Below, piece after piece: positions 24,405 to 38,558 of a stretch of 56,316 nucleotides of DNA. The DNA is taken from contig JAFGOC010000036.1 in assembly GCA_016926705.1 (NCBI GenBank), positions 1-56,316 on the forward strand, written 5' to 3'. This stretch comes from Dehalococcoidales bacterium. GTDB taxonomy: Bacteria > Chloroflexota > Dehalococcoidia > Dehalococcoidales > RBG-16-60-22. Within the stretch, counting starts at the first letter, position 1. Every line of letters begins with the position of its first letter. The notes below the pieces were generated by a model, which searched no databases, was not told the DNA's origin, and saw nothing but the letters and a program-made list of their open reading frames with translations. A program made the translations under genes and the position numbers.

Positions 24405-25736
24405 TTACTTTTTAGAGGCTCGTTTTTTGCTCCTGGGCGCCGGCTTGAACTCCGGTTTATCTTTCACTCCGGCAAGTTTTAGAGTACGGTTGGCTATCGC
24501 CGTTGCCTGGTTGACGATGCTGGTCCATTTTTCACCGGCTTCACTCTCTGCATTGACTATAATATCCCTGGCTTTTTGTTTTGCCTCACGGATGATTTCT
24601 CCAGCTTTTTCCCGGCTTTCTTTAATTAATTGGGCGGACTCCGCAGCAGTTTTGGCATCGGCTTTTAACTTGGCCGTTAGAGATTCGGCATCTTTTTTTG
24701 CTTTGGCGATAATTTTAACGGCCTTGCTGCGGGCATCGGCAAGAACCCTGGCGGCGTCTTCCTCGGCATCGGCTCTGGCGCGGTCGGCAATTTCAGCGGC
24801 GGCTCGCTTTGCTTTAACAGTAATTTGCGCCGCTTTTTTACGCGCCTCGGCGGAAAAGCCGGCTGTATCACCGTCTGCCTGTTTTTTCGTTCTAGCGGAA
24901 ATTTCAGCAGCTGCCTCTTCGGCTTCGTGTATAATTTGCTCGGCTTCTTTGCGGGCATCGGATGTTATAGCAGACGCGTCGGTCGCTGCCTCGGCCTTCA
25001 TTTCACGGGCGACTTCCGCTGCTTTCTTGCGGGCTTCGGTGATGATTTTGCCTGCTTCCGCTTCCGTATCTTTAGTTAAATTGTCTTTAGCAGTCAGCTG
25101 TCGGTTGGCTGCCAGGGCATCATGGATTATTTCCTCTGATTTCCGGCGCGCTTCGCTGACAAGTTTGTCCGCCTCCACCTTCGCCTTGGCGTAAATATCG
25201 TCCTGGGCCATCATCTCCCTGGCGGTGAGTTCCGCCACGTCGATTATCTGGTCGGCTTTCTCGCGGGCTTCCGCGATGATACCGGACGCGGTGGCCTCGG
25301 CTTCGGTCTTGATTTGATGCAGTATGTGGGCTGCCTGTTGTTCCGCGTTCTTGATGATTTGCTCGGCTTTCCCCTTGGTTTCGTCGATGAGCTTGGCGGT
25401 TTTTGTCTCCGCTTCATTCTGGCCTTTGGCTTCTATATCCCTGGCTACCTGTTCCGCGCGGGAGATTATTTGAGAGGCTCTTTGCTTGGCATCGTTGAAA
25501 ACCAGCGTCGACGGCTCGGTGCGCTCCTCCGGTTTCTCCTTAGGCGATGTTTCTTTCATCCGCTGCGGGAAACGATCGATGGAGGGGAATTGGGGACGAT
25601 TCGCCCCGGATTTTTCAAGTTCCTTTTTCCCCTTTTTTTCAAAAGGGCGGTTCATTGTCAAAGGCTGGTGGCACCAGCGGCAGACTGTGCCGAAAGCTTC
25701 CTGGCCGCAGTTTGGGCACTTAGGACGTGTTCTCAT
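24405..25736 (-). CDS. Zinc-ribbon protein with nine ~37-aa alpha-helical repeats
   Basis: N-terminal CPNCG-x8-CRWC zinc ribbon, then a basic/Pro-rich linker. The motif A[KR]x[KE][AS]xxII recurs at approximately aa 83, 121, 157, 196, 235, 261, 298, 335 and 374. The C-terminus is basic. The 255-aa antisense ORF is Ala/Ser-rich shadow. Confidence 0.75.
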   Translation of the reverse strand: MRTRPKCPNCGQEAFGTVCRWCHQPLTMNRPFEKKGKKELEKSGANRPQFPSIDRFPQRMKETSPKEKPEERTEPSTLVFNDAKQRASQIISRAEQVARDIEAKGQNEAETKTAKLIDETKGKAEQIIKNAEQQAAHILHQIKTEAEATASGIIAEAREKADQIIDVAELTAREMMAQDDIYAKAKVEADKLVSEARRKSEEIIHDALAANRQLTAKDNLTKDTEAEAGKIITEARKKAAEVAREMKAEAATDASAITSDARKEAEQIIHEAEEAAAEISARTKKQADGDTAGFSAEARKKAAQITVKAKRAAAEIADRARADAEEDAARVLADARSKAVKIIAKAKKDAESLTAKLKADAKTAAESAQLIKESREKAGEIIREAKQKARDIIVNAESEAGEKWTSIVNQATAIANRTLKLAGVKDKPEFKPAPRSKKRASKK

Positions 25737-26207
25737 ACAAATTACCTCTTATAAAAAAACAACGATAGCACGCTCTGGAGATTCATCGGTTCTTGCCCGT
25801 ACAAAACACATAAGATACCCGGTTAGCATGATTATAACATATCGAGGCAACCAACTTAAGCCTCCATTTTGAAAAATTGCATCAAAATTTTTCAGCTTGA
25901 TTTTAACCTGAAAATACTCAAAAGAACCTCAAGTTTTCACAGGCGTAAATTGATAGCCAGAACCCAGATAACATTGGTGTTTCCCCTAGTGGAAAATCAG
26001 GGGAATCTTACTATCGACTTACTGTTCAAGCAAGTAATATCAGAGGTATAAACCTTTATCACACCATATCAAGCTAACAATAAGGATGTTAATAAGTTGA
26101 CCTCCGAAGCTAACCGATTTTACGAGGCCCATATCACACCCTCGTGTTGTCAAAGAATTTCACCTTCCATTTAATATAAGGAAAGTCTTAAGAAAAGGAG
26201 GGAAAAT

Positions 26208-26582
26208 ATGAAAGGCTTTGCGAAAAAGAGCAGCAGAGGTGAAAAAGGTTTTACCCTGGTCGAGCTACTCATCGTGTTTACCTTGCTGGGTATCCTGGCC
26301 GCAATCATGATTCCTAACGTGTCGGGATTAATCGGCTATGGTCAGACACAAGGCGCCGGAGCGGAACTCTCCATCATACAGACAGCAATGGATACTATGA
26401 TGGCTAAAGAGAATCTGGATGGTGTGGACGCAGTGGACGCTGCAGCTGCTACAAGCAACATGTCCAATTTCACAGCAGCCCACCCGCTTTATCCTAATTA
26501 CGTGCGGTTTGAATCAGCCACGGGTAACTACACCTGTGACGATACCGGCCTGGTTGTACAAACTCTAACCGGCTACGAATAG
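26208..26582 (+). CDS. Type IV pilin (prepilin with class III signal peptide)
   Basis: MKGFAKKSSRGEKG|FTLVELLIVFTLLGILAAIMIPN has the canonical G/FTLxE cleavage-methylation site with Glu+5. Strong RBS aaggaggg. The mature protein is about 110 aa. Confidence 0.85.
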   Translation: MKGFAKKSSRGEKGFTLVELLIVFTLLGILAAIMIPNVSGLIGYGQTQGAGAELSIIQTAMDTMMAKENLDGVDAVDAAAATSNMSNFTAAHPLYPNYVRFESATGNYTCDDTGLVVQTLTGYE

Positions 26583-26662
26583 AGTAGCGGCGTATAAGTT
26601 AGTAATTAGTAACTTGTAAGCAGAACAACTGCAAAGCAAAACCGGGTATTAGTGAGTGTTTT

Positions 26663-28927
26663 ATGCCGATGAACACAACAACTGCAAAAAGCGGTATAAA
26701 TAGTGGCGATAAGCTGGAGACAACGGCTGCGCTGAACACTAAGACCGGTGAGGAGACCCAAGAGGCAGCCTCTTTGAATAGCGACTCCAAAGAGTTGCTG
26801 TTGAGAGCGCAACAAAGCGCTCTTGAAGCTAAAGAGGCTGCCTTGGGTGCCATTAACCGGTTTTATAAGGAAAGCAAAGCTTCGGAAACCAGAGCCTCGA
26901 AAATGCTGAATGAGCTGGAAGATGCGCTTCAGCTGGCTCTTCAGGCCACGAGAAAGTCTCGAGGCTCTAAAAACAACAGCCAGGGCACCGGCGAGTCCGC
27001 CGCAGTACCGCATGACGAAACGAATTTAAAAGAACCTAGTAAAATCTTTCATGCCAATCCATTCGGCATTGTCACGGATTTAAAGAGGTCCCTTTTAAAG
27101 ACTAAACCTACCGATGCCGAAGTCAAAGAAGAATTCTACCGGCTGGTAATGCGCAAGAGCCCCCAACTGCGCCAGCTTATTAATGATTTAACCGAAGATA
27201 AAGCTAAAGCCAGAATTGATGAAGTCATTTCAGAAGCTAAATCTGAAATAGCGGCGGCCCGCGCGGCGGTAATTAAGGTCCAGCAAGAGGTCAATACCAC
27301 CAGGGAAGAAGCTAAAAAGACCTACCTTGATGCCGAGAACGCCCGCAAAGCTGCTGAATTACTGGTTAGCCAGGTAAAGCAGGAAACAATTACCAAGGCT
27401 GCCGATGAGATTGTAAGAGCCCGCGAAGAAGTGAAAGCAGCTAGAGAGGCTGCCGGCATGGCCGTTCAGCGGGCTGAAGATGAAATCAGGAAAAACTGCG
27501 AAGAAGCGGCTACCGTAGATAAAAATGCCCAGGTGACTGTTGCCTTAGCCAATGAGAAATTAAAAAAGTATGCCGAGGAACTGAAGGCCTATAAAATTCA
27601 GGCGCACATTGCGGTGAAGCAGGCCAGGGATGAGGCGAATAAAGCCAGGGCGGAGGCTGAAGTAGCCCGCCGCGCAGTCCAGGAAGCGGTTGAAAAAGCA
27701 GCTCTGGAAAGCCAGCAGGCCAAAGCAAATATTGAGACCGCGCAAAAAATGATGCAGGAAGCCACGATTATAGCGGAAAAGCATGCTTATGACGAGTTCC
27801 TTGAAGAAGTCCAGAATATGCGGCAGGAAATCAACGCTATTAGTGCCAAAGCGCGTGAAGCTATAAACAAAGCACAGCGCGAAAGCCGCGAGGCCAAAGA
27901 AGAGTTGGCTATGGTAAAAAAGACCAGCGAAGAAGCGGTAAGTACGGCGCGCCAGGAAGCTCTTGAAGCCCGCGAAGAGGCTGAAAAAGCCAAAAAGTCG
28001 ATGATTGATACTAAAAATCGAACTAAAGAAGAAACCCGTAAAATGCGGCAGCAAGCAGAAACCAGCGTGATAAGGGCCAGCGAAACTATAACGCAGGCTA
28101 AGAAAGATATTATAAATATTACCCGTGATGACATCATCAGGGCGAGGCAGGAACTCGAGGTGCCTTTTAAAGCGACCAAATCTGATGATAAGCAGGCATC
28201 CGAGAAGCTGGATGCCGAATACGTGGCTGCTGTATTACATGAAATGCGCAGCCCGTTGCACTCGATTTCAGGGTTTACCAAATTACTGAAAGAAGATGGT
28301 GTTACCGATGAGGCCACGCGGCAGGAATTCCTCTCCATCATGGAGCAGCAGAGTGAAAGCCTGAACAAATTAATCGATAACCTGTCAGATATTTTAAACA
28401 ATAAAACCGAAGGACTGACCGTCAATGCCGTAGCGGTTTCTCCGTACGTCATGATTACCGAGGCTATAGACGGTGTAAAATCGATGGCGCAGAAGAGGAA
28501 TAATCTGATAGGCCATGACCTTACCCCCGAACTCCCGGAGGTAAAAGCCGATGCATTTCGTATCAAGCAGGTAATTACCAACCTGCTGACCAATGCTATC
28601 AGATACAGCCCTGAAAACCGTCCTATATTCGTTAAGGCCCAACCGCAGGATAATGAACTGCTGGTGCAGGTGGTTGATTATGGCATCGGCGTTCCTAAAG
28701 GGGAACTGAAGTCTATTTTCAACAAGGGGCACCAGGCCAGCAACCGCGGCGACGTGGAGGGCAATGGGCTGGGACTTTATATTTGCCGTCAGATAGTTAA
28801 AGCGCACGGTGGGAAAATCTGGGCGGAAAGTGTGGAAGGAGAAGGCAGCACGTTCAGTTTTACTCTGCCGATTAATGCCGTGGAACAACTGGAAAGTAAA
28901 ATCGTAGAGAAAAGCTATGTCGGGTAA
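26663..28927 (+). CDS. Soluble histidine kinase with ~500-aa coiled-coil N-terminal region
   Basis: No hydrophobic segment. A long helical region is rich in AR[ED]EA motifs. H-box AAVLHEMRSPLHSISGF. HATPase_c motifs NLLTNAIRYS, DYGIGVP and GNGLGLYICRQIVKAHGGKIWAES. It overlaps the next gene by 11 nt. Confidence 0.85.
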   Translation: MPMNTTTAKSGINSGDKLETTAALNTKTGEETQEAASLNSDSKELLLRAQQSALEAKEAALGAINRFYKESKASETRASKMLNELEDALQLALQATRKSRGSKNNSQGTGESAAVPHDETNLKEPSKIFHANPFGIVTDLKRSLLKTKPTDAEVKEEFYRLVMRKSPQLRQLINDLTEDKAKARIDEVISEAKSEIAAARAAVIKVQQEVNTTREEAKKTYLDAENARKAAELLVSQVKQETITKAADEIVRAREEVKAAREAAGMAVQRAEDEIRKNCEEAATVDKNAQVTVALANEKLKKYAEELKAYKIQAHIAVKQARDEANKARAEAEVARRAVQEAVEKAALESQQAKANIETAQKMMQEATIIAEKHAYDEFLEEVQNMRQEINAISAKAREAINKAQRESREAKEELAMVKKTSEEAVSTARQEALEAREEAEKAKKSMIDTKNRTKEETRKMRQQAETSVIRASETITQAKKDIINITRDDIIRARQELEVPFKATKSDDKQASEKLDAEYVAAVLHEMRSPLHSISGFTKLLKEDGVTDEATRQEFLSIMEQQSESLNKLIDNLSDILNNKTEGLTVNAVAVSPYVMITEAIDGVKSMAQKRNNLIGHDLTPELPEVKADAFRIKQVITNLLTNAIRYSPENRPIFVKAQPQDNELLVQVVDYGIGVPKGELKSIFNKGHQASNRGDVEGNGLGLYICRQIVKAHGGKIWAESVEGEGSTFSFTLPINAVEQLESKIVEKSYVG

Positions 28928-30104
28928 AGTATTAGTAATTGAAGACGACCCGACCTCTTTGAGGTTGATAGAGTACGCTCTTAAGCAGCGTGGCTACCAG
29001 GTCATGACTACTCTTAACGGGCTGGAAGGCATTATTACCGCCCAGAAAGAGGAGCCGGACCTTATTATCCTGGATATCATGCTGCCGGGGATTGACGGCT
29101 TCGAGGTATGCCGCCGGCTGCATTCCGGTTCGCAAACGACGAAGATACCTATTCTGATTATATCTGCCAAGACGCAAAAAGAAGATATCAACGCCGGCTT
29201 CAAGGCTGGCGCTGATGATTACCTGCTGAAACCGGCCTCCCCGACCGAAATTATTAATCGTGTGGAGAGCCTGCTTTCTAAGAAAATAACCGGCCAGGCT
29301 CGGGTGGTATCTTTTGTCAATACCAGTGAGATTCCCGGCTTGACTATGGTCATGGTGAATGTCGCGGCGGCGCTCGTAGAACAGGAAAAGCGGGTTACGC
29401 TCATCGATGCTTCAAACAGTTACAAAGGACAACCCGGTAAGAACAAAGTATCCTCTGAACAGGACGGCCGGGTCATTCTGGAGGTGGATACTAATGGTAA
29501 CGGCGGACAGGAGCCGGGACTGGAAACACTGCCTTCCGGCATAAGAGTCCTGCACGTGGACGATGTGTTTGACGATAACAATGGTGCATCAGAAGTCAGC
29601 CTCGACCTGGTGCAGAAAATCGGCAAGTCCAACGATTACCTGCTGGTTGATCTGCCCCTTAAGCCCAGTCACTTTACCACCTCGATACTTAAGAGCAGCG
29701 ACCTCGTGATGATATTAAGCGATTACCGCATCGATAACCTCATTACCACCAGGAACGCCGTTACACTGCTTAATTTCCTCGGCATTACGGCGGAAAAAAT
29801 GGCCGTCGTGCTGGCGGACTCGGAGGGCAAGAACCAGAACCTGACGACCGCCAATATGAAGCCCTTTGTGGAAGCCAACCTGGGGATTATGCTGGTGGAG
29901 GTCGTTTCTTTCGATGCCAAGATGTACCAGCTGTTCTACCTGGACAGCCAGCCTGTAATACAGTCTAATCCGAACCAGAAACTGGCCCAGGACTTAAAGC
30001 GTATCGCCCGTTACGTCGCTACTTATAGCTATACGGGGCAGGAACCCAAGCAGTCAAAAAAAGCGACTCCTCCCGCGGAGGTAAAAATTGACGCTGACAA
30101 ATAA
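28917..30104 (+). CDS. Response regulator: canonical receiver domain fused to a ParA/MinD/TadZ-like domain with a degenerate Walker A
   Basis: REC domain: VLVIEDD, DLIILDIMLPGIDG (acceptor Asp), ILIISAKT, DDYLLKP. C-terminal domain: RVVSFVNTSEIPGLTMVMVNVAAALVEQEKRVTLIDAS aligns by eye to xIAVxSxKGGVGKTTxAVNLAAAL, with both P-loop lysines replaced. A LLVDLP Walker-B-like strand is retained. Confidence 0.8.
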   Translation: MSGKVLVIEDDPTSLRLIEYALKQRGYQVMTTLNGLEGIITAQKEEPDLIILDIMLPGIDGFEVCRRLHSGSQTTKIPILIISAKTQKEDINAGFKAGADDYLLKPASPTEIINRVESLLSKKITGQARVVSFVNTSEIPGLTMVMVNVAAALVEQEKRVTLIDASNSYKGQPGKNKVSSEQDGRVILEVDTNGNGGQEPGLETLPSGIRVLHVDDVFDDNNGASEVSLDLVQKIGKSNDYLLVDLPLKPSHFTTSILKSSDLVMILSDYRIDNLITTRNAVTLLNFLGITAEKMAVVLADSEGKNQNLTTANMKPFVEANLGIMLVEVVSFDAKMYQLFYLDSQPVIQSNPNQKLAQDLKRIARYVATYSYTGQEPKQSKKATPPAEVKIDADK

Positions 30105-31776
30105 CAGGCCGAAAGGCACGCTGGGAGAATCGCTGGTCCAGAGGCAGATAATCACTGCAGAACAGCTTGAGCAAGCCCAGGAAAAACAGAAGGAGCAGGG
30201 CGGCAAGCTTAGTGAAATCCTGGTCAATATGGGTTTCGTTAAAGTTGAAGAGCTGGCATCATTCCTTAGCATCATGTGGAATGTGCCTCTAATCGACCTG
30301 AAGACACATGTGGTGCAGCCGGAAGCCCTGGCATTGATACCGGAAGAACTGGCCAGGAAGCATCTTTTTATTCCTTTACAAATCATCGGCGATTCGCTGA
30401 TGGTGGTGATGGCTGACCCCGATGACTATATTACCATCGGGGATATTTTTGCCAGGACCAATATGAAGGTGCAGGTGGCGTTTGCCAGCGCTGCGGACAT
30501 CCGGCGCGCTATAAATATTTACTACCGCGCTACCGATGAAATTCAGGAGAAGGTTAGCGAGTCCCTTCCGATAGACATCGGCGACCGGGGGTCCGCCGTT
30601 GATTTCAGTGTTGAAACACCCATCACGGAAAGCCTGGACCTGCTTATTGAACAGGCTATCAGAGACCGGGCGTCCGATATTCACCTTGAACCCCAGAACG
30701 ACCGCCTGCGTATCCGTTACCGTATCGATGGCGTACTGTATGATATGAACTCCGTGCCCATCAGTGTGCACACGGAACTGGCTTCCAGGATAAAAATACT
30801 GGCGGAAATGGACGTTACCCGCTCGAAGCAGGCACAAGACGGGCAGTTTTCTATAAAAATAGGCGATAAAAGCATCGATATCCGCGTCGCCAGCGCCGAT
30901 ACCATCCACGGCGAGCGGATTACCCTGCGTCTGCTGGATAAATCGGTATCGCTTTTTACGCTGCCGGAGTTGGGTTTTTTGCCGGATACTCTAAAAAAAT
31001 ACCGGGCGCTTTTGCACTATCCCTTTGGTATGGTTTTAGTAGGGGGCCCGACCGGTTCCGGTAAAACGACCACGCTTTATACATCGATAAATGAAATCGA
31101 CCGTAAAAGATATAACATTATGACCATCGAAGACCCGGTGGAATACCAGTTCGAGAACATCACCCAGAGTCAGGTAGACCCTAAAACCGGGATTACTTTC
31201 GCCAGCGGACTGCGGGCATCGCTGCGGCAGGACCCGGATGTCATCCTCGTGGGAGAAATCCGCGATAAAGAGACCGCCATTACCGCCGTTCAGGCCGCTC
31301 TTACCGGGCATCTGGTATTTTCGTCAATCCATGCCAATGATGCCGTCAGCATGATTACGCGCCTTCTTGACCTCGGGGTTGAGCCGGGGCTGATATCCTC
31401 AACGCTTATCGCTTTATTGGCGCAGCGCATGGTACGCCGCATCTGTACCAATTGCCGCGTTGCTGCTCCGCCCAATGCCGTGCAGCAGGAGATATACCGC
31501 AAGGAAATGGGGCAGGAATTAACTTCCGTATACAAAGGCACCGGTTGCCACCTTTGCGGCCAGACCGGCTACATGGGCAGAATCGGTATCTTTGAAATGC
31601 TCGTCATGAGTGAAGAAATACAGAAAATGCTGATTAGCGATGTCAGCATAGGGACATTAAGGGAAGAGGCGATTCGTGAAGGCATCTATACCATGAAGCA
31701 TGACGGGCTGTTGAAAGTAAAAGAAGGAATCACCACTTTCGAAGAAGTGATGAACAGCGTATTTACGATTGGGTAA
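30088..31776 (+). CDS. pilB: Type IV pilus assembly ATPase (GspE/PilB family)
   Basis: N-terminal T2SSE_N/MshEN-like helices, Walker A GGPTGSGKTTTLY, Asp/His boxes (VGEIRD, LTGHLVFSSIHAN), and a tetracysteine motif CTNC...CHLC. TTG start overlaps the upstream gene by 17 nt. Confidence 0.92.
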   Translation: MTLTNNRPKGTLGESLVQRQIITAEQLEQAQEKQKEQGGKLSEILVNMGFVKVEELASFLSIMWNVPLIDLKTHVVQPEALALIPEELARKHLFIPLQIIGDSLMVVMADPDDYITIGDIFARTNMKVQVAFASAADIRRAINIYYRATDEIQEKVSESLPIDIGDRGSAVDFSVETPITESLDLLIEQAIRDRASDIHLEPQNDRLRIRYRIDGVLYDMNSVPISVHTELASRIKILAEMDVTRSKQAQDGQFSIKIGDKSIDIRVASADTIHGERITLRLLDKSVSLFTLPELGFLPDTLKKYRALLHYPFGMVLVGGPTGSGKTTTLYTSINEIDRKRYNIMTIEDPVEYQFENITQSQVDPKTGITFASGLRASLRQDPDVILVGEIRDKETAITAVQAALTGHLVFSSIHANDAVSMITRLLDLGVEPGLISSTLIALLAQRMVRRICTNCRVAAPPNAVQQEIYRKEMGQELTSVYKGTGCHLCGQTGYMGRIGIFEMLVMSEEIQKMLISDVSIGTLREEAIREGIYTMKHDGLLKVKEGITTFEEVMNSVFTIG

Positions 31777-31806
31777 AAGGCCGTTTTTTTGTACAGGGGA
31801 ACATGA

Positions 31807-33021
31807 ATGTACCAGTATGAAGCATACACTCTTGATAAAGAGATTGTTCAGGGCACTATCGATGCTCCGAACGAAGGCGTAGCCGAGGAAAGACTCAATG
31901 GGGCCGGTTATCACCAGATATTAACTCTGAAAAAGACCTCCCCAACACTTTCCGCATCTGTCAAGAGACTGTTTCACCTCCCCTCCTCCGTAAAAAAATC
32001 AGAATTCACTGATTTTTTCTATCAACTCGCCACGCTTTTGGATTCCCGGATGCCCTTTGTGCAGGCCCTTTGGGTACTGGCCGAGCAAACCCATAATCCG
32101 GCTTTGAGGGATATTATTAGCAAGCTGGGTAGAGATGTGTCCAGTGGTATTCCTTTCTCTCTGACGCTGGGACAGTATCCTAAGCTGATATCAAGCCATT
32201 ACTGTCAGGTAATCAGGGTCAGTGAAAAATCCGGCGACCTGACGCGCGGTTTGAGACTGGTGGCCGGTTACATCGAGAAAGAGGCCTCACTAAGCGGCCA
32301 CGTTAAGCGTATGTTGTCTTATCCCTCGTTTCTGGGTTTAGCATCGCTGATTGTAATAATAATCGTGGCTACCGTAGCGGTGCCGTCTTTAACCAAGCTG
32401 TTCGATTCGCTCGGGGTTGATTTGCCCCTGGTGACGCAGATACTTGTTGCCTGCGCCGGTTTCATTACAACCTATAAGTTCCACCTTGGGGCTGGAATAC
32501 TGGCAATTATCGGTATTGTTTTCCTCATAAAAAAATCACCCGGCGCCAAGAAGTATTTAGACATGCTGGCGTTAAGTCTGCCGATTGTCAGCAATATCGT
32601 GATCATGCGTAATATCTGCCGGTTCTGCCGCAGCAGCGCTATGTTGATAGAGGCCGGTCTTACACTCCCGCAGGCACTTAATGCGATTATCGGCACGATA
32701 GACAATACCATCATAAGAAATGCGCTAAAAGAAATCCGACAGGAGACTATCAAGGGTAAAGGTCTTTGGCAGCCGATGGAGAAGTCCGGACTTTTCCCCA
32801 GGTTGCTGGTGGACGTGGTGGCTATCGGTGAAAAGAGCGGCTCTTTACAGTCCTCGTTTTCCACGATGGCGGACTATTATGAGAAAAGGCTTGACCAGAG
32901 GGTACAGAAGCTGCTTTCGATGATTGAACCGGCTTCTATTATACTCGTCGGTCTGATTATCAGTTTTATCGGTATAGCAATTATTACGCCGCTATATTCA
33001 ATATATCAGAACGTAGCCTAA
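31807..33021 (+). CDS. pilC: Type IV pilus platform protein (GspF/PilC family)
   Basis: 404 aa with two GspF-type repeats and three TM helices. The ending IITPLYSIYQ is typical of PilC/GspF. Confidence 0.9.
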   Translation: MYQYEAYTLDKEIVQGTIDAPNEGVAEERLNGAGYHQILTLKKTSPTLSASVKRLFHLPSSVKKSEFTDFFYQLATLLDSRMPFVQALWVLAEQTHNPALRDIISKLGRDVSSGIPFSLTLGQYPKLISSHYCQVIRVSEKSGDLTRGLRLVAGYIEKEASLSGHVKRMLSYPSFLGLASLIVIIIVATVAVPSLTKLFDSLGVDLPLVTQILVACAGFITTYKFHLGAGILAIIGIVFLIKKSPGAKKYLDMLALSLPIVSNIVIMRNICRFCRSSAMLIEAGLTLPQALNAIIGTIDNTIIRNALKEIRQETIKGKGLWQPMEKSGLFPRLLVDVVAIGEKSGSLQSSFSTMADYYEKRLDQRVQKLLSMIEPASIILVGLIISFIGIAIITPLYSIYQNVA

Positions 33022-33027
33022 AAAACG

Positions 33028-33435
33028 GTGTGCATAATGATAAGGATGTTAAAAAGGCTATATAAGAAAACGCAACGGCAGGGAGGCCAGAGGGGCATGA
33101 CCATGCTCGAAGGCCTGATATGCATAGGTATATTGGGCGGTGTTGTGATATTGATGGTATTCGCCATGTCCGGCGGAGCTCTGGCGGTAAATGAAAACGA
33201 GGAGGAGACGGCGGTTCAGAATCTGGCCAGAAATCAGATGGAGTATATCAAAAGCCTGGCATATAATCCTGGGGCTTCTACTTACCCTACCATAAGCACT
33301 CCGCCCGAATACAGCATTACTGTGAGTGTTACTGCGGTGCCGGATACCAACAATAACATTCAGAAGGTTACGGCGAATTTCTACCGTAATAGCACGCTCC
33401 TCATGACCGTATCAGATTATAAGGTAAACCGATGA
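33028..33435 (+). CDS. Minor pilin / pseudopilin with prepilin-type N-terminus
   Basis: ..QRG|MTMLEGLICIGILGGVVILMVF has Gly followed by Glu at +5 and a hydrophobic helix. The start is ambiguous: GTG 33028, ATG 33037 or ATG 33046. Confidence 0.65.
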   Translation: MCIMIRMLKRLYKKTQRQGGQRGMTMLEGLICIGILGGVVILMVFAMSGGALAVNENEEETAVQNLARNQMEYIKSLAYNPGASTYPTISTPPEYSITVSVTAVPDTNNNIQKVTANFYRNSTLLMTVSDYKVNR

Positions 33436-33878
33436 AAGGAGAAAGGGGATATACTCTAGTAGAAGGGCTGATAGCTATTGCCATTACCGGCTTTCTGGTG
33501 ACAGCACTTAGTATAGTGGTGCAGCAGATGGTTGTTGTGCCCGAGCGGGGTGATGACCAGATTGATGCCATTCACCCGGTGCAGAACGCAGCCCACTGGC
33601 TGACGCTTGACGGTCAGACCGCTGAATCGGCCAGCGGCGGCAGCAGCCTGATGCTGACTTTACCCAATGAGAATATCATCACCTATACGTTTTCCGGCGA
33701 TAAGCTCTTTAGACTTTACGGCAGCTCAAACCGGACGATAGCCGATAATGTCGCCAGCGCCAATTTTACCGTCCTGGACAGGGTTATTTACATGACGATT
33801 GCCACCTTGCCGGACAGTCGCTGGAATATAAGTGAAAATTATACCTACCGGGCTTATATGCGCCCGACGGAAACATAA
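33432..33878 (+). CDS. Minor pilin / pseudopilin with prepilin-type N-terminus
   Basis: MKGERG|YTLVEGLIAIAITGFLVTAL has a canonical G/xTLxE site. ATGA overlap with the upstream gene. Confidence 0.75.
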   Translation: MKGERGYTLVEGLIAIAITGFLVTALSIVVQQMVVVPERGDDQIDAIHPVQNAAHWLTLDGQTAESASGGSSLMLTLPNENIITYTFSGDKLFRLYGSSNRTIADNVASANFTVLDRVIYMTIATLPDSRWNISENYTYRAYMRPTET

Positions 33879-33881
33879 GAA

Positions 33882-35195
33882 ATGAAGATGAAGATAAACG
33901 GAGAAAAAGGCCAGGCTCTGCCACTTGCGATGATCGCCGTCATTTTGGGCGCGCTGGTGATTCCGCCCTTTGTGGGTTATGCCGGCAGCAGCATAATCGG
34001 CTCTCATGCTTACGGGGATGCTATACGCTCGCAGTATGCCGCCGACTCCGGCGCCGAGCACGCTATCTGGAGATTGACTGATGACGGCTTGATGGATATT
34101 TTAACGAGCGCCGGTAGTATGGTCAGTTATACGCTGGACGAAACTCTAAACGGCCTGACAACGAACGTAACCGTTTGTAACGCATGGCAAACTATTGCCG
34201 ATGATGACTTCAACAGTGGTGGCTGGTCGGGAGGCACAGGCTGGCTCGATGACTGGACACATTCAGGAGACAGCGCCGTAACTTCTTCCGGGAGTCCTTA
34301 TGAAGGTCCTTATCACTTGAGATTGAGGGGTGGCAGTGCGATTGCGCAACGACCCGTGGACCTTTCTCATCAGATAGATATTCATCTCCGCTTTTGGGCT
34401 AAAGTCAATTCTTTTGAAACGTGGGATACCGCTACCTGCCAGGTCAGCAGCGACGGTATAAATTGGAACACCGTCTATACTTTTACCGATGTCTTAAGTG
34501 ATGATATTTATCGTTATTATGATTTTGAGCTGTCTTCATATAAGATGACCGGCCAGTTCTGGATTTCTTTTAACTCCAATATGAGTAGCACAGGTGACTA
34601 CTTTTATGTTGATAAACTGGATATAGTATGGCTGGTGGCTAATCCCGTTACCTTTGCTACAGAAGATTTTGAAAGTGGAGGTTGGTCCGGCGGCACCGGC
34701 TGGCTTGAGGATTGGACACATACCGGTGCTTCTTCGGTTACTACCTGGAGTTCTCCTTACGAAGGCTATTATCATTTATTGCTGCAAGGTTCCAACGGTG
34801 ATGTGCAGCGCCCGGTTGACCTCTCTGCGGCCGGTATAGTCTACTTGAGATTCTGGGCTAAGGTCTCCGGTTTTGAAAGCAGGGATAATGTTGTATGCCA
34901 GGTGAGTCCCGATGGCTCAACATGGTCAACTATCTATACCTGGACGACGGCCCATGACGATAATGATTATCACTATTACGCTATCAGCCTGGCACCTTAT
35001 GAGATGACCAGCGAGTTTTGGATTCGTTTCAGTAGCAATTGTAATAATCAAAACGATTATTTCTTTGTTGATTTAATATCGCTGGTAAACCTGGATGCTT
35101 ATGGTGTAACAGCTAAAGCTGGCGATAGCATCATAAAGGCAAAGGTCTTTGTCGATTCAGGAGTTGTCACGATTATATATTGGTACTACGTTTAA
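33882..35195 (+). CDS. PilX-N-like pilus protein carrying two tandem ~145-aa beta-sandwich-like modules (putative tip adhesin)
   Basis: The N-terminus GEKGQALPLAMIAVILGALVI resembles the PilX N-terminal segment, with no Glu+5. Two internal repeats (aa ~106-249 and ~259-402, offset 153 aa) share DFxSGGWSGGTGWLxDWTH..SPYEGxYHLxL.G....QRPVDLS....LRFWAKV..FE....CQVSxDGxxWxTxYT......YY...L..YxMTxxFWIxFxSN....DYFxVD. Confidence 0.65.
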   Translation: MKMKINGEKGQALPLAMIAVILGALVIPPFVGYAGSSIIGSHAYGDAIRSQYAADSGAEHAIWRLTDDGLMDILTSAGSMVSYTLDETLNGLTTNVTVCNAWQTIADDDFNSGGWSGGTGWLDDWTHSGDSAVTSSGSPYEGPYHLRLRGGSAIAQRPVDLSHQIDIHLRFWAKVNSFETWDTATCQVSSDGINWNTVYTFTDVLSDDIYRYYDFELSSYKMTGQFWISFNSNMSSTGDYFYVDKLDIVWLVANPVTFATEDFESGGWSGGTGWLEDWTHTGASSVTTWSSPYEGYYHLLLQGSNGDVQRPVDLSAAGIVYLRFWAKVSGFESRDNVVCQVSPDGSTWSTIYTWTTAHDDNDYHYYAISLAPYEMTSEFWIRFSSNCNNQNDYFFVDLISLVNLDAYGVTAKAGDSIIKAKVFVDSGVVTIIYWYYV

Positions 35196-35230
35196 TGAAT
35201 TGAATATGAAAAAGAGAGTAAATTTGATAG

Positions 35231-35854
35231 ATGAGTTTAAGTATAGCGGAAAGAAATAAAATTAATAAAAAGTCCCGGTCTTTGACTAACTGGCTGTGGG
35301 TGATAGGGATTATTGCCATTATCGTGGTCAATATCATCATCTGGAAAAACTATCTCGGAGAAAAATCTGAAATCGAGGTTTTACAGAATGAAATAGCGCT
35401 CGTAAACCAGCAAATTGCCCAGGCGGCGCAGCCCCCAACCAATCTTGAATCTGAATTGGAAAGAGCCCAGAGTGAACTTGCGGCAGCCCTGGAGGTTTTT
35501 CCGGAGAGAATCGACAAGACCGACGTGGTTGATTTTATTATTAATACCGCAGAAGCATGCGATGTCCGGATTATACCTCTTATATGGGAAGGACAAAAGG
35601 TTAGTGATACCGGCCAATCGTACGTAGTGCTGCAATATAGCGGAACCGTCATCGGTAAATTGACCGATGCCACCAATTTTATCACCATGCTTAGAAACGG
35701 CGATTATTCTACCATTATCATCACCGAGTGTACCGTTGAAAGGACGTCTGCACTGGATAGTGATGTATCGAGTAGTGAAATCAATGTGACCATTGACCTT
35801 GTGTTTTCTCTCTATGCCATTTCCATCCTTGACAGTAAGGATAGCATTTTATGA
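35231..35854 (+). CDS. PilO/PilN-like bitopic pilus alignment protein
   Basis: Short cytoplasmic N-terminus, one TM (WLWVIGIIAIIVVNIIIW), a coiled coil (EIEVLQNEIALVNQQIAQ...ELERAQSELAAAL), then a globular domain. Stop/start overlap with the next gene. Confidence 0.55.
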   Translation: MSLSIAERNKINKKSRSLTNWLWVIGIIAIIVVNIIIWKNYLGEKSEIEVLQNEIALVNQQIAQAAQPPTNLESELERAQSELAAALEVFPERIDKTDVVDFIINTAEACDVRIIPLIWEGQKVSDTGQSYVVLQYSGTVIGKLTDATNFITMLRNGDYSTIIITECTVERTSALDSDVSSSEINVTIDLVFSLYAISILDSKDSIL

Positions 35855-37308
35855 AAATAACGACGCTAAATATAAGCTCCAACGTAATAAAGTACGTTAC
35901 CACCAACGGCAACGGTCAGGTCAAACACGGCAGCATTACGCCGGACGGCCTTATCAATAACGGCCTGATATTACAGCCTGATGCTATCGCCAGTCAGATA
36001 AAGACCATGTTTGCTGATAACGCCCTTCCCAAGAACAAAGTTATCTGCAGCATCAATGGTCTGCCGTTTTCCTATAGGCTGTTTACCCTCCCGAAGATGG
36101 AGCCGGCGGCTTTTGATGAAGCTATTATCAGGGTAATCAGGAAAGAGATGCCCATTTCTCCGGATGAAATGTACCTGCTGTGGCAGGCTTATCCCACGGA
36201 AAATAAGGAATGGCAGGTGCTGGTGGCGGGCATAACGCGCCAGCCTGTTGATAACCTGGTGAAAACATTATCGGCAGCTGGCATCAAGCCGTATTTTCTT
36301 GACCTTCAGCATCTTTCTCTGGCCAGGTTGAGCGGTGAGTCCGATGCAATAATCGTCGAATGTGAAAAAGACTACTCCAATATCGTGATGCTGGTAGAAG
36401 GAATACCGCAGGCTTTACATATCGTTCCGTCTCTGGGGGCAGAGGCTGCTGTTAAGGATGAAATCCGCCAGGTTGTCAGCAGACTCAATAAGATGGTCAA
36501 TTTCTATAACAACAATCATCCTAAAAACCCCATTAAAGAGGATTCCAAGGTCCTGCTGACCGGCGAACTGGCAAACGAGGATGGTGTGGTAGAGCTTGTA
36601 CAGAAGGAAGTAGATTATACGGTAGAGCTTTTATCACCGGCCGACAAAGTGGTTTCCGGCATGCCTTTGCATGATTTTGCCGTTAACGCCGGCTCGATAC
36701 TCATGAAGACTGCGCCGGAAAAGGAAGCCGGCAAAGACGCTACTCCTCATCGCAGTATCAATCTCGCCAGGGTTGCCAGGCAGCTGCAAAGTATTAATAT
36801 TTCCAGTATTTCCAACGCAGTAATCGTAGGTTCGATTGCCGCTTTCGCCGGCGTCGTTGCTCTGGTATTCGGATTTTTATCGCTAAATCAAGTACGGGAA
36901 GACTTAGCTCTGGCGCAGGGGCAATTGGTCAAGGCTAATGCGGAATACAGCACCATAACAAGTACGCTCGCCGCCTCCCAGGCTGTGCAGGATAATATCG
37001 ATGAAGTTAAAGCGCAGATACATTTGATAAACGCCGATTACGAATCGATATTGAATTCGACGGATCATGTAGCCGATATTGCCGCGGTCACCCAGTCCGT
37101 TCCTGACGACCTTGTGTTTACCGATTTAGAAATTACGTCCGACCAGATTTTCGTATATGGCAGAACCTACGAGCCAGCGACGGTCGTCCAGTTCGCACGG
37201 AATCTTGAACTGATCGGCGATTTTTCCAAAGCTGATATCCAGCGTATCGACTGGGCAAACAGCACCTCCGGCCCTTCACTGTCTTTTATGATCGTTATCA
37301 ATAAATAG
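35851..37308 (+). CDS. PilM (actin-like ATPase fold) fused to a PilN-like TM/coiled-coil C-terminal region
   Basis: The N-terminal ~300 aa has PilM-like organisation (ITTLNISSNVIKYV..., AGIKPYFLDLQHLSLARL). This is followed by a TM helix (VIVGSIAAFAGVVALVFGFLSL), a coiled coil and a C-terminal domain. Confidence 0.7.
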   Translation: MKITTLNISSNVIKYVTTNGNGQVKHGSITPDGLINNGLILQPDAIASQIKTMFADNALPKNKVICSINGLPFSYRLFTLPKMEPAAFDEAIIRVIRKEMPISPDEMYLLWQAYPTENKEWQVLVAGITRQPVDNLVKTLSAAGIKPYFLDLQHLSLARLSGESDAIIVECEKDYSNIVMLVEGIPQALHIVPSLGAEAAVKDEIRQVVSRLNKMVNFYNNNHPKNPIKEDSKVLLTGELANEDGVVELVQKEVDYTVELLSPADKVVSGMPLHDFAVNAGSILMKTAPEKEAGKDATPHRSINLARVARQLQSINISSISNAVIVGSIAAFAGVVALVFGFLSLNQVREDLALAQGQLVKANAEYSTITSTLAASQAVQDNIDEVKAQIHLINADYESILNSTDHVADIAAVTQSVPDDLVFTDLEITSDQIFVYGRTYEPATVVQFARNLELIGDFSKADIQRIDWANSTSGPSLSFMIVINK

Positions 37309-37475
37309 GGCCGGCATGATTATCTTCGCTTAATCTCCCCCCTTATTCACTTAAGGTGCTTTTGGTTGTATTGCGCCTGATTGTGTGGTAAAAGTGTCTC
37401 TAAGAATGTTAAGATAAACTGGTACGTTTTAGTCATATCGGTTCAATGACTTTACATCAATTAGAGGAGGGCTCG

Positions 37476-38558
37476 ATGAAAGCAGCGGTCTGTTACGAAT
37501 TCGGCAAGCCATTGGTGATAGAAGAAGTGACATTATCCGAGCCGGGTGATATGGATGTTAAGGTACGCCTGACGGCGACGGCAATCTGCCACAGCGATAT
37601 CCACGACTGGAAGGGAGAGCTTCCGGGGGGCCTGCCTTTCGTCGGTGGGCACGAGTCGGCGGGGTACGTGGAAAAAGCAGGGCGGGGAGTAATTTCCGTA
37701 AAAGCCGGCGACGCGGTGGTTGTTTCGCTGCTGGCTTCATGCGGTAAATGTTATTACTGCGCCAGCGGTCTGCCGCACCTCTGCGAGCACAGGTTCGACC
37801 CGCCTCCCAACCCGCGTGTGCACAATAAGAAAGGACAGTCTCTGGAACTTAAGGGCAATATCGGCGGCTTCGCCGAATACACCGTCGTTGACGAGTCGCA
37901 GGTCGTGAAGGTGCCGGAGGATATGCCCCTGGACCGGGCGTGCCTGCTTGCCTGCGACGTGATTACCGGTTTCGGCGGCGTGGTCAACCGCGCCAGGGTG
38001 CGGCCTTTCCAGAGCGTCGTGGTCATGGGCGTGGGCGGTGTCGGTATCAATGCCATTCAGGGGGCCGCTTACGTGGGCGCTTATCCCGTTATCGCCGTGG
38101 ACATGCTGGATGCCAGGTTGAAAATGGCCATGGACATGGGGGCTACGCATACGGTCAACGCCGGGCGTAAAGACGCGGCGGATGTTATAAGGGGGCTGAC
38201 GGATGGGAGGGGGGCGGATTTCGTCTTTGTGACCGTCGGCAGTATCGCCGCAATCAAGCAGGGGTTTTCCTTCACCGGTCTGCGCGGCACCACCGTTCTT
38301 ATCGGCCTGCCTAAATATACCGACCAGTTTTCCTTCGCCCCGCTGGAACTGATACCGACCGAGAAGAATATCATCGGCGGTTTCATGGGGGCCACAAATC
38401 TGAAACTGGACATCCCCAACCTGGTGAACCTGTACCGGGCGGGGCGTCTCAAGCTGGACGAGCTGGTTACCGGGCGCTTTCCGCTCGAGCGCATAAACGA
38501 GGCGATAGCATCGACGGAAAAAGGCGAAGGCCTGCGTAACGTTATCATGTTCAAGTAA
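37476..38558 (+). CDS. Zinc-dependent alcohol dehydrogenase (MDR family)
   Basis: Catalytic CHSDIH and GHESAGYV, structural zinc motif CGKCYYCASGLPHLC, and Rossmann GVGGVG. The ATG at 37476 with a gaggaggg RBS is preferred over the listed 37446. Confidence 0.9.
   Translation: MKAAVCYEFGKPLVIEEVTLSEPGDMDVKVRLTATAICHSDIHDWKGELPGGLPFVGGHESAGYVEKAGRGVISVKAGDAVVVSLLASCGKCYYCASGLPHLCEHRFDPPPNPRVHNKKGQSLELKGNIGGFAEYTVVDESQVVKVPEDMPLDRACLLACDVITGFGGVVNRARVRPFQSVVVMGVGGVGINAIQGAAYVGAYPVIAVDMLDARLKMAMDMGATHTVNAGRKDAADVIRGLTDGRGADFVFVTVGSIAAIKQGFSFTGLRGTTVLIGLPKYTDQFSFAPLELIPTEKNIIGGFMGATNLKLDIPNLVNLYRAGRLKLDELVTGRFPLERINEAIASTEKGEGLRNVIMFK

Follow-up and report, generated by a model that had tools for sequence, protein, structure and literature searches.

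A pilus locus in a metagenome-assembled genome of Dehalococcoidales encodes a regulator that joins a canonical receiver domain to a MinD/ParA fold, and its gene lies before that of a PilB-type motor. This regulator is the real novelty of the locus; our literature search found no description of the arrangement, which is conserved in related Chloroflexota. Control of type IV pilus motors is usually described in terms of transcription (PilS/PilR), second messengers (c-di-GMP via MshEN or PilZ/FimX), or CheY proteins like those of chemotaxis. The locus family ties an organizer of the TadZ kind to a PilB-type motor, the receiver being a genuine phospho-receiver with a kinase dedicated to it, and it is spread over an entire phylum whose members dominate in the environment and are mostly uncultured. 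Computation established which genes it contains, the states of their domains and motifs, the fold, and the conservation of gene order.

Organization of the Locus

Within the window (the whole 56-kb stretch of DNA that was analyzed, 56,316 nt), the ORF list places ten ORFs at positions 26208–37308, all on the + strand, in the order pilin, HisKA kinase, REC plus ParA-like regulator, PilB, PilC, two minor pilins, a 437-aa pilin-like protein, a PilO-like protein, and PilM::PilN. The features of the locus and its upstream flank are as follows, with a slash at the class III site of pilins.

24405..25736, −: zinc-ribbon and Ala/Glu/Lys-rich coiled-coil protein, 443 aa, divergent neighbor
26082..26144, +: relic of a MerR/HTH_17 regulator, C-terminal 21 aa (tblastn)
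26208..26582, +: major type IV pilin, 124 aa, class III signal ...GEKG/FTLVE (Pfam N_methyl 3.9e-8)
26663..28927, +: soluble histidine kinase, 754 aa (HisKA 519–576, 5.5e-12; HATPase_c 630–737, 9e-29)
28917..29282, +: receiver domain of the response regulator (Response_reg 5–117, 9.9e-29)
29301..30104, +: MinD/ParA-fold domain of the regulator (AAA_31 129–269, 2.8e-7)
30088..31776, +: PilB-type extension ATPase, 562 aa, N-terminal MshEN / c-di-GMP-type motif (T2SSE 4.6e-120; MshEN 1.8e-17)
31807..33021, +: PilC/GspF-type platform protein, 404 aa (T2SSF 4e-51, two stretches)
33028..33435, +: minor pilin 1, up to 135 aa, cleavage site ...QRG/MTMLE (weak PilV 5e-5, ComGE 2e-4)
33432..33878, +: minor pilin 2, 148 aa, ...ERG/YTLVE (N_methyl 2.3e-6)
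33882..35195, +: large modular pilin-like protein, 437 aa (AF2 model, Foldseek)
35231..35854, +: PilO-like bitopic protein, 207 aa (topology, size, position)
35851..37308, +: PilM::PilN fusion, 485 aa (PilN 1.8e-6; PilM_2 4.5e-6)

Gene order and junction coordinates match those of a first-pass annotation of this DNA exactly, and the Pfam profile check that it had proposed, run together with NCBIfam, gave family calls for most of the locus proteins. The regulator start at 28917 lies inside the end of the kinase gene (stop at 28927), the TTG start of PilB at 30088 is ahead of the regulator stop at 30104, and 4-nt overlaps occur at 33432/33435 and 35851/35854; the remaining intergenic gaps are 6–80 nt. 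Such tight packing agrees with the earlier suggestion of a single translationally coupled unit, and the ten genes are probably co-translated. Because the gene arrangement recurs in about 40 independent contigs, it is not a product of chance.

Eleven proteins had originally been counted. The eleventh gene of relatives is here the 21-aa relic, which has lost its HTH part and is 71% identical over 21 aa (E 6e-6, tblastn) to a 75-aa protein of related locus L001. Intact 75-aa MerR/HTH_17 genes precede the pilin in loci L001, L002, L004, L089, L098, L099, and L113. The 443-aa neighbor has a marginal DivIVA match (28.3 bits versus a cut-off of 28; Pfam) and is kept beside MMPL, upstream of the pilin, in the close clade (L001, L002, and L085–L087). 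We found no sequence similarity between it and the helical region of the kinase, and its membership in the pilus system is uncertain.

Pilus Machinery

The core of the machine is classified from its proteins as type IVa-like, in the single-membrane form. The major pilin has a single TM helix (residues 12–44), matches GspG, PilA, and ComGC at its N-terminus (NCBIfam), and is 42–75% identical across 25+ related loci. Minor pilin 1, the real start codon of which is probably internal, has a class III site (G/MTMLE) and one TM (residues 23–56), and its position is kept in all related loci. The position of minor pilin 2, with a TM at residues 6–37, is conserved among relatives. Gly-1 and Glu+5 are present in the class III sites of three pilins.

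PilB scores best in NCBIfam with the PilB model TIGR02538 (537 bits, yet below the equivalog cut-off of 675), followed by GspE (504), ComGA (254), and the TadA family (52). Its full-length PDB matches to T4aP PilB and PilF range from 5e-138 to 2e-130, headed by T4aP PilB 5TSG (5e-138) and then Thermus PilF and Myxococcus PilB. By profile scores and PDB matches it is nearest to T4aP motors. The c-di-GMP motif of PilB scores 58 bits against a cut-off of 38 (NF053729); as an MshEN-type motif it could be a second, possibly dominant, input to the motor, which counts against a reading centered on the regulator. The platform is, as in T4aP, a single PilC/GspF protein with two T2SSF domains; it has TM helices and scores 262 bits with GspF, 230 with Thermus PilC, and 127 with ComGB (NCBIfam).

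PilM and PilN are present as a single fusion protein, in which a cytoplasmic actin-like PilM (TIGR01175 pilM 7.5e-11; Thermus PilM 2YCH 3.5e-11) is followed by one TM (317–348) and the PilN domain. The 207-aa protein has one N-terminal TM (residues 17–43) and a conserved position before PilMN. Its profile (A5) aligns in register with Myxococcus xanthus PilO (3JC8_O) at a nonsignificant E of 0.18; on topology, size, position, and this one sub-threshold match, we call it PilO-like. Neither the 207-aa nor the 437-aa protein has a family match in Pfam or NCBIfam.

This inventory resembles that of monoderm T4aP such as those of Streptococcus sanguinis and Clostridium (Denise et al. 2019), in which PilB, PilC, PilM, PilN, and PilO(-like) proteins, one major pilin, minor pilins, and a pilin with an adhesive module are encoded in one cluster lacking secretin and PilP (PMC6916266). 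It differs in the fusion of PilM to PilN and in having no PilD or PilT in the window, and a kinase and REC-MinD-like regulator between pilin and PilB were found in no described monoderm T4aP locus in the literature. The first-pass annotation had suspected an undescribed type IV filament subtype, but PilB, PilC, and PilM/N are all T4aP-like. It had also treated the lack of a secretin as distinctive, whereas this is expected in single-membrane bacteria: secretins are routinely absent from monoderm T4aP and Tad systems (PMC6916266, PMC6668835). Its report that prepilin peptidase, PilT, and secretin are missing from the window is borne out: in Pfam, none of 40 other ORFs of the 56-kb window, a set with nearly every non-overlapping ORF that encodes 150 aa or more, matched Peptidase_A24, PilT, or secretin. 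Absence of PilD and PilT from 56 kb does not imply absence from the genome, and PilT may lie elsewhere in it; a true PilT/PilU directly follows PilMN in a sister clade (L107: TIGR01420 459 bits, cut-off 319).

Regulator

The receiver keeps D10/D11, D53 (nt 29073–29075), S83, Y102, and K105, with D53, S83, and K105 invariant among 96 homologues, and is modeled with pLDDT > 90. No other part of the regulator is as conserved (70–97% identity in the close clade versus 37–88% for the C-terminal domain). The MinD/ParA domain carries a disordered insert (residues 168–200) and a disordered tail. Over its whole length its profile (A3) matches MinD-1 1HYQ in the PDB (1e-7), with KGGTGKT aligned to sseipglt, and Foldseek superimposes it on MinD 1HYQ with a TM of 0.76. 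The P-loop is degenerate, reading FVNTSEIPGLT where xKGGxGK[ST] is expected. Both Walker A lysines are missing from all 15 aligned homologues, and the set of 96 conserves neither. Sister Chloroflexota clades have, at the equivalent place in the locus, GAKGGVGTTT or intermediates such as GPKGKAGTTT. As read from these alignments, the clade of the window has lost the Walker A lysines, and the C-terminal domain is predicted to have lost nucleotide binding. Pfam and NCBIfam detect no DNA-binding domain, Sigma54_activat, or HTH in the regulator, in agreement with the original description of a regulator devoid of DNA-binding output.

That description left the domain combination unrecognized; it is the architecture of TadZ/CpaE, in TadZ's gene position. 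Both domains of the AF2 model (pLDDT 77) match TadZ of Eubacterium rectale (3FKQ; 395 columns, E 4.7e-10) in Foldseek. In both proteins a receiver-fold N-terminus precedes a MinD/ParA-fold C-terminus, the gene is immediately upstream of that of the filament motor ATPase, and there is no DNA-binding output. Some Chloroflexota relatives carry the JGI label "pilus assembly protein CpaE". TadZ is a hub that positions the Tad motor, and its gene adjoins tadA (bioRxiv 10.64898/2026.07.08.737194; PMC6668835). MinD-like organizers of the TadZ/CpaE type have been described as accessories of Tad only (PMC6668835, PMC6916266, bioRxiv 10.64898/2026.07.08.737194).

The two differ in ways that concern both halves of the protein and the machine beside it. 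The receiver of TadZ is atypical and non-phosphorylatable (Pfam TadZ_N), whereas that of the window is canonical and has no TadZ_N match; TadZ keeps an ATP-binding Walker A-like K/RGGxGxS/T, whereas the regulator of the window lacks the lysine. The motor here is PilB with an MshEN N-terminus instead of TadA/CpaF, a single PilC stands in place of TadB plus TadC, and the pilins are of the GFTLVE kind, not Flp-like. Common descent with TadZ is unproven, since the profile of the C-terminal domain matched archaeal MinD-1, Wzc, and Soj in the PDB and not 3FKQ, and only 1 of 84 outgroup relatives matches TadZ_N.

Pairing of the Regulator with PilB

The regulator gene is directly before PilB in 39 of 41 related loci with downstream DNA, across a range of C-terminal-domain identity from 88% down to 21–26%; the two exceptions are REC-less short paralogues. 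Where genes have been called (the window and six loci), the regulator stop and PilB start overlap or are at most 32 nt apart. Other Dehalococcoidales have a single-domain REC (55–59% identical) directly before PilB (49–59% identical), and because a plain REC also holds this place, the pairing of receiver with PilB is the constant element. More distant REC-ParA proteins are outside pilus loci, and the combination of domains is therefore not in itself a pilus trait. Synteny of kinase and regulator with pilus genes in related genomes, on which the first-pass reading depended, is present.

Known regulators of type IV pili share some of these features. CheY-like proteins (PilG/PilH of Pseudomonas aeruginosa, PixG/PixH of Synechocystis, and the PATAN-CheY protein PixE, with PilB1) are also non-transcriptional receiver proteins, and the single-domain REC before PilB in sister Dehalococcoidales loci resembles them. 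Their phosphorylation state controls PilB/PilT function or polarity, and the Synechocystis PATAN-CheY proteins provide a precedent for receivers that act directly on PilB (bioRxiv 10.1101/2021.06.11.447907; PMC11181946). They are, however, single-domain or PATAN-REC proteins served by CheA-type kinases and chemoreceptors, whereas the window encodes a HisKA-type soluble kinase and a receiver with a degenerate MinD/ParA output domain. PilS/PilR is, like the pair described here, a two-component system that serves type IV pili specifically and has its genes close to those of the pilus, but PilS is a membrane kinase and PilR a sigma-54 activator (AAA+, HTH) of pilin transcription; the kinase of the window has no TM and the regulator neither of these domains.

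Kinase

The kinase has an Ala/Glu/Lys-rich helical N-terminus of ∼500 aa, a DHp with H526 (nt 28238–28240), and HATPase_c; its H-box reads LHEMRSPL, and N, G1, and G2 boxes are likewise readable in its sequence. In a Kyte–Doolittle test with a 19-residue window, the kinase, regulator, and PilB have no hydrophobic segment (window maximum < 1.6), and the kinase is thus without a TM segment, as first annotated. Residues 1–505 match no Pfam family even at E 1, and there is no Pfam Scy/DivIVA support in this kinase. Residues 167–500 contain only 2 Pro/Gly and have a hydrophobic period of 3.6. Kinase and regulator together show the sequence hallmarks of a two-component phosphotransfer pair, namely the H-box His, the N/G1/G2 domain, and an adjacently encoded receiver with an Asp pocket.

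Across loci the kinase is the variable partner. The sensor differs by clade, the gene is missing from some loci, and in several distant-clade loci no kinase lies between pilin and REC. One subclade (L004, L097, L099, L100, and L102) has pseudokinases that carry the ∼500-aa helical N-terminus and end right after DHp; the DHp helix and coiled coil are kept, the His and CA domain are lost, and a phosphotransfer pair is not present. The pair had been called private to the pilus locus, but it is less so: the REC(-ParA-like) protein is constant beside PilB, and the kinase is variable, absent, or a pseudokinase in relatives. As the kinase is not universal and is a pseudokinase in one subclade, phosphorylation by the kinase of the window is not the conserved core of the mechanism.

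DivL of Caulobacter retains its CA domain, and Tyr replaces the His. The subclade proteins are like it in keeping a DHp helix without the phospho-acceptor His, unlike the intact kinase of the window. The analogy suggests that these pseudokinases may bind the receiver rather than phosphorylate it.

Models for Control of the Motor

We consider it likely that the pilus machine is controlled post-translationally through the regulator, and control of assembly or placement at this level was also the earlier proposal. In the mechanism that we favor, a type IVa-like motor would be under a dedicated, non-transcriptional phosphorelay, in which the soluble kinase autophosphorylates at H526 and passes phosphate to D53 of the regulator. 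The regulator has the build of TadZ/CpaE with the states of its two halves reversed, the receiver being canonical and the ATPase-like domain without P-loop lysines. Because the receiver is canonical while the P-loop lysines are lost, we propose that receiver phosphorylation substitutes for ATP binding and would switch the MinD-like domain between oligomeric or conformational states. The switched regulator would then dock on the PilB hexamer or the PilM/PilC platform and license or position pilus extension, with either sign (on or off). We infer this scheme in its entirety, phosphotransfer and regulator–PilB contact included, and lean slightly toward a phosphorylation-gated, nucleotide-independent TadZ-like adaptor that acts on the pilus motor. 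The specific phospho-for-ATP switch acting on PilB falls just short of an even chance. Should contact between regulator and PilB not be borne out, the locus would be an ordinary, well-conserved monoderm T4aP cluster with an adjacent orphan signaling pair.

On a broader and more tentative proposal, which we regard as somewhat doubtful, type IVa-like pili of Chloroflexota would form a distinct regulatory subtype. A TadZ-like partner of PilB would have become a pseudo-ATPase switched by aspartate phosphorylation only (in the clade of the window), and the kinase a pseudokinase scaffold (in one subclade). If so, these loci would be a natural series from an ATP switch to a phospho-switch in a ParA/MinD-family organizer. 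The gradient of P-loop decay exists in nature and is amenable to in vitro testing, and kinase, regulator, and PilB, all of them soluble, make a compact model for communication between a MinD/ParA fold and a secretion-superfamily ATPase.

Alternatively, the regulator could be a TadZ-like localization hub, together with the helical kinase and perhaps the coiled-coil neighbor, such that phosphorylation shifts the place of the machine and not motor activity; the kinase would be a DivL-like scaffold whose DHp helix binds the receiver. The two-domain fold match to TadZ is consistent with a hub, as Tad machines are localized by TadZ/CpaE (bioRxiv 10.64898/2026.07.08.737194), and so are the conserved, uninterrupted helical region of ∼330 aa in the kinase, the retention of coiled coil and DHp helix by pseudokinases that lost His and CA domain, and the conservation of a marginally DivIVA-like neighbor in the close clade. 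But MinD/ParA positioning normally needs ATP-dependent dimerization and surface binding, and the P-loop is gone here. The disordered tail of the regulator shows no amphipathic helix for membrane targeting, and the kinase helices show neither similarity to the neighbor nor, in the window, a Pfam Scy/DivIVA match. We judge a hub of this kind unlikely.

It is improbable that the pair is merely co-expressed with pilus genes and has its output elsewhere, in partner-mediated transcription (e.g., through a MerR-like protein), as a phosphate sink, or in another envelope process. Such an output would fit the MerR/HTH_17 genes that several relatives have before the pilin, the additional single-domain REC genes and kinases of sister loci, which suggest branched signaling, and distant REC-ParA homologues without pilus genes. 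However, the MerR gene is a mere relic in the window while the kinase–regulator–PilB block is intact, and adjacency and overlap of regulator and PilB persist over deep divergence, whereas all that lies upstream is variable, as would be expected if the regulator were a physical partner of PilB.

It is very improbable that the machine, instead of being an adhesive or retractile pilus, is a monoderm pseudopilus for DNA uptake (Com-type) or secretion (T2SS-like). In favor of a pseudopilus, the pilin N-terminus scores alike for GspG, PilA, and ComGC, the minor pilins weakly match ComGE/ComGF, GspF is the top NCBIfam match of PilC, and PilT is missing from the window. Against it, full-length PilB is nearest to T4aP PilBs with ComGA far lower, the locus encodes PilM, PilN, and a PilO-like protein, a bona fide PilT/PilU follows PilMN in the sister clade, and a large pilin with tandem CBM-like modules is typical of adhesive modular pilins.

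Modular Pilin

The AF2 model of the 437-aa protein (pLDDT 89.7) consists of a helix (residues 9–67) followed by beta modules; the pilin alpha-1 helix is without Glu5 (..EKG/QALPL..). Its top Foldseek match is the tandem CBM22-1/CBM22-2 (4XUP, 5e-13); reelin repeats and meprin MAM come next. Model and matches together identify two tandem CBM-like beta-sandwich modules, and the protein has an internal duplication (55% identity over 154 aa). Only the N-terminal ∼100 aa are conserved in the distant clade. On the modeled structure, this protein is a candidate tip adhesin, and a CBM-like tip pilin would be a candidate handle on surface attachment by Dehalococcoidia, of relevance to microbial communities in the subsurface and in bioremediation.

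Organization of the pilus locus

Judged from sequence, the locus at 26208–37308 appears to encode a monoderm pilus of T4aP-like type into which a non-transcriptional module of kinase and receiver-MinD-like protein is embedded, here in a form that has no nucleotide loop. Ten successive plus-strand ORFs make up the locus. The first-pass annotation spoke of eleven genes, and the ORF coordinates and junctions it gave are all as found here. Kinase and regulator genes overlap by 11 nt (28917/28927), regulator and PilB genes by 17 nt (30088/30104), and there are 4-nt overlaps at 33432/33435 and 35851/35854. Kinase, regulator, and PilB are each free of hydrophobic segments.

Genes of the pilus locus, in order, and the two genes upstream
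21720–24233, minus strand: MMPL transporter, divergent, upstream of the pilus locus
24405–25736, minus strand: zinc-ribbon and Ala/Glu/Lys-rich coiled-coil protein with a marginal DivIVA match
First gene of the locus, plus strand: class III pilin (Pfam, NCBIfam)
Second gene, plus strand: kinase (HK), 754 aa, HisKA/HATPase_c (Pfam, NCBIfam)
Third gene, plus strand: regulator (RR), 395 aa, Response_reg (1e-28) then AAA_31 (2.8e-7) (Pfam, NCBIfam)
After the regulator, plus strand: PilB, T2SSE and MshEN (Pfam, NCBIfam)
After PilB, plus strand: PilC, two T2SSF domains (Pfam, NCBIfam)
After PilC, plus strand: two small pilins with Gly-1/Glu+5 sites
33882–35195 and the gene before PilM::PilN, plus strand: 437-aa and 207-aa proteins, neither with a Pfam or NCBIfam family
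Last gene, plus strand: PilM::PilN fusion (Pfam, NCBIfam)

Pfam searches of 40 other ORFs from all over the 56-kb window returned no Peptidase_A24, PilT-type ATPase, or secretin, in agreement with the earlier statement that prepilin peptidase, PilT, and secretin are missing from the window. The lack of PilD and PilT on one contig cannot be generalized to the genome. The missing secretin had been presented as distinguishing, but absence of secretin and PilP is the rule in monoderms (PMC6916266; PMC6668835), so being secretin-less is not novel.

In relatives, a 75-aa MerR/HTH_17 gene precedes the pilin; it is intact in seven related loci on other contigs (L001, L002, L004, L089, L098, L099, and L113). 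The window keeps a 21-aa relic (26082–26144) in which only the last 21 codons are recognizable, and the closest relatives, L085–L088, also lack the gene. Positions of the zinc-ribbon coiled-coil and MMPL genes are conserved in L001, L002, and L085–L087. AT skews on either side of position 26000 are strong and opposite (−0.23 and +0.26) because two A-rich helical coding regions lie there. We dropped the idea that the kinase helices and the neighboring coiled-coil protein are paralogs because no BLAST similarity was left after composition correction. Minus-strand ORFs inside the kinase gene (e.g., 27787–28593) were taken as shadows of the A-rich coiled-coil coding region, with its AT skew of 0.26. 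Counts of promoters and terminators in 25600–37600 equaled the shuffled expectation and are evidence neither for nor against internal signals, and the window gave no Rfam or tRNA hits.

Conservation of a receiver next to PilB

More than 100 full-length homologs of the regulator occur in metagenomes, with identity down to 48%, and every one of the few with a named organism comes from a Dehalococcoidales or Chloroflexi MAG. Three homolog contexts, two of them on contigs of 1.47 and 1.23 Mb, have the order pilin, helical kinase, regulator, PilB, PilC, two minor pilins, 437-aa protein, ∼200-aa protein, and PilMN. A metagenome scan with the C-terminal domain alone as query added 36 loci. In a tblastn comparison of all loci, 41 have 200 nt or more of downstream sequence, and in 39 of these PilB is the next gene after the regulator; short paralogs without REC account for the other two. 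The pair noted in the first-pass annotation is thus syntenic with pilus genes in relatives, and this conserved synteny rules out chance adjacency. Paralogs of ∼215 aa of the P-loop-less MinD-like domain, lacking REC and the disordered insert and not adjacent to PilB, are seen in loci L115 (∼800–1480) and L119 (∼2200–2850).

A scan of genome contigs with the full-length regulator alignment, the source of loci L005–L007, is uninformative on distribution among GTDB species: among the matches listed, 77 of 80 loci are unrelated response regulators. One of its back-translated patterns is a generic receiver motif, and the sole result of a local HMM search for ParA-like ORFs in its loci was an unrelated Pseudomonas ORF. 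In three more Dehalococcoidales loci, a kinase gene is followed by one for a plain single-domain REC, 55–59% identical to the window's receiver, and then by PilB. Therefore, the invariant is a receiver followed by PilB, on which the MinD-like domain and the particular kinase are layers specific to lineages.

A MinD-like regulator without a P-loop

The receiver has D10/D11, D53, S83, Y102, and K105, with D53, S83, and K105 invariant across 96 homologs. No other part of the regulator is as well conserved: identities within the close clade of related loci are 70–97% for the receiver versus 37–88% for the C-terminal domain. The AF2 model (pLDDT 77) places a MinD/ParA fold at residues 129–370, with a disordered insert and tail. 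Foldseek aligned archaeal MinD (1HYQ; TM 0.76) and, over both domains, Eubacterium rectale TadZ (3FKQ; E 4.7e-10). A profile of the C-terminal domain by itself matches MinD-1 over its whole length (1e-7), with the MinD KGGTGKT motif opposite "sseipglt". Both Walker A lysines are absent from all 15 aligned homologs, and neither is conserved across the 96. A conventional CbiA/ParA-type P-loop protein encoded elsewhere in the window (53869–54648, minus strand) is unrelated.

In an HMM search, exhaustive over 1.8 billion cluster representatives, no more than 12 clusters reached E < 1e-30. Beyond them is a cloud of 370–430-aa proteins that align from residue ∼125–145 on. Among 84 of these, a canonical Response_reg is found in 69, AAA_31 in 80, and TadZ_N in one. 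The cloud's consensus P-loop is GAKGGVGTTT, and there are intermediates such as GPKGKAGTTT. Its nearer members are Chloroflexota proteins, some named "pilus assembly protein CpaE" by JGI. In the three contexts read for these, their genes directly precede those for an MshEN-T2SSE PilB, PilC, minor pilins, and PilM, and the kinases nearby are quite different; more distant REC-ParA members are outside pilus loci. Accordingly, the window's regulator is a derived, P-loop-less member of a PilB-linked REC-MinD/ParA clade.

In the literature searched, TadZ counts as specific to Tad: it is called "uniquely found in Tad systems" (bioRxiv 10.64898/2026.07.08.737194) and counted among the "Tfpc-specific proteins" (PMC6916266), and archaeal components match its profile "but not … profiles from the bacterial systems" (PMC6668835). 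The window's regulator matches TadZ in its two-domain fold but lacks TadZ's atypical receiver, Walker A-like motif, and Tad context. Since three of the four defining features fail, we do not file it as TadZ, although by analogy it may work like one. A study of Anaerolineae reports ordinary Tad loci only, and we found no description of the arrangement at the window's pilus locus in the literature searched on Dehalococcoidia/Chloroflexi pili with response regulators, CpaE, or PilB.

Variation of the kinase

The H-box (H526) and the N, G1, and G2 boxes of the kinase are intact. Its N-terminal 505 aa match no Pfam family at E up to 1, so a weak "Scy" match on a homolog was set aside. Residues 167–500, with two Pro/Gly and a hydrophobic period of 3.6 residues, are indicated to be a long stretch of helix or coiled coil.

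Across relatives, it is the kinase that varies. Other Dehalococcoidales/Chloroflexota have dCache-HAMP-PAS, REC-PASx5, GAF-PAS, or hybrid forms, and several distant-clade loci have a second single-domain REC instead of a kinase between pilin and REC. In one subclade, the helical protein ends directly after the DHp, without HATPase_c, and Asn, Arg, or Asp replaces the phospho-acceptor His in an otherwise conserved DHp helix.

Truncated kinase homologs of the subclade, by related locus
L004, 8042–9919
L099, 7655–9550
L100, 550–2469
L097, 1–285
L102, 2–238

Their genes are still directly ahead of the REC-ParA-like gene and PilB, so these proteins are predicted to be pseudokinases or scaffolds.

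Proposed action on the pilus machine

Beyond the observed composition, motif states, folds, and conserved gene order, we infer phosphotransfer from H526 to D53. The lysines for ATP-dependent sandwich dimerization are lost from the MinD-like domain, and receiver phosphorylation would be the remaining switch. We hypothesize that the target of the switched regulator would be PilB or the PilM/PilC platform. Such action would resemble the role of TadZ as a hub for TadA (bioRxiv 10.64898/2026.07.08.737194) and parallel Synechocystis, in which CheY-like proteins bind PilB1 (bioRxiv 10.1101/2021.06.11.447907; PMC11181946).

A second input to PilB is likely, given its MshE-type c-di-GMP motif (58 bits, cut-off 38; window 30121–30270, PilB residues 12–61). 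Compared by eye with the textbook MshEN motif, which contains RLG and a Gly, the first PilB repeat starts TLG and has Gln at the Gly position, and this departure makes c-di-GMP binding uncertain.

The main rival to a phospho-switched regulator is a role in localization alone, in which the helical kinase would serve as a scaffold, a function that the pseudokinase subclade supports. Co-expression of the genes without physical coupling is less likely.

Pilus core and pilin-like proteins

The whole length of PilB can be aligned with T4aP PilBs of solved structure, best with that of Geobacter (5TSG; 5e-138), then Thermus PilF and Myxococcus PilB; GspE, PilT, and BfpD are well behind. NCBIfam scores are highest for type IV-A PilB (537 bits) versus ComGA (254) and the TadA family (52), and a filament of Com/T2SS-like identity is less likely. 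PilM matches Thermus PilM (3.5e-11). In a sister clade (regulator C-terminus ∼30% and PilB ∼61% identical), a genuine PilT/PilU directly follows PilMN (459 bits, cut-off 319). Together, these PilB and PilM matches and the sister-clade PilT identify a monoderm T4aP-like core. The PilT/PilU gene is at 17615–18679 in locus L107 and is likewise found in L103, L108, L114, and L116; all five have an extra single-domain REC gene immediately ahead of the REC-ParA-like gene.

The 207-aa protein resembles PilO in topology, size, and position alone; among PDB profile matches, the best is Myxococcus xanthus PilO at E 0.18. The 437-aa protein has no match in PDB by sequence. Its confident model (pLDDT 89.7) has a pilin alpha-1 helix (residues 9–67) followed by two tandem beta-sandwich modules of ∼155 aa each, 55% identical to each other and both containing the W-rich motif GGWSGGTGWLxDWTH. 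By fold, the tandem CBM22 pair of a xylanase matches best, then reelin repeats and meprin MAM. The protein is a modular pilin and probably forms the adhesive tip. Only the N-terminal ∼100 residues are kept in the distant clade, in which the head is swapped, with a beta-helix repeat in L107.

Ahead of the pilus locus, two members of the pseudokinase subclade (L004, 1–7145; L099, 437–6423) encode a second T2SSE ATPase, a kinase, a double-REC protein, a hybrid kinase of REC-GAF type, and an OmpR-type regulator, which are possible trans-acting phosphodonors. Just upstream of the pilin in L107, a distant-clade locus, a 389-aa protein (6786–7955) has a partial FtsZ/tubulin match, scoring 59 bits against TIGR00065, far under the cut-off.
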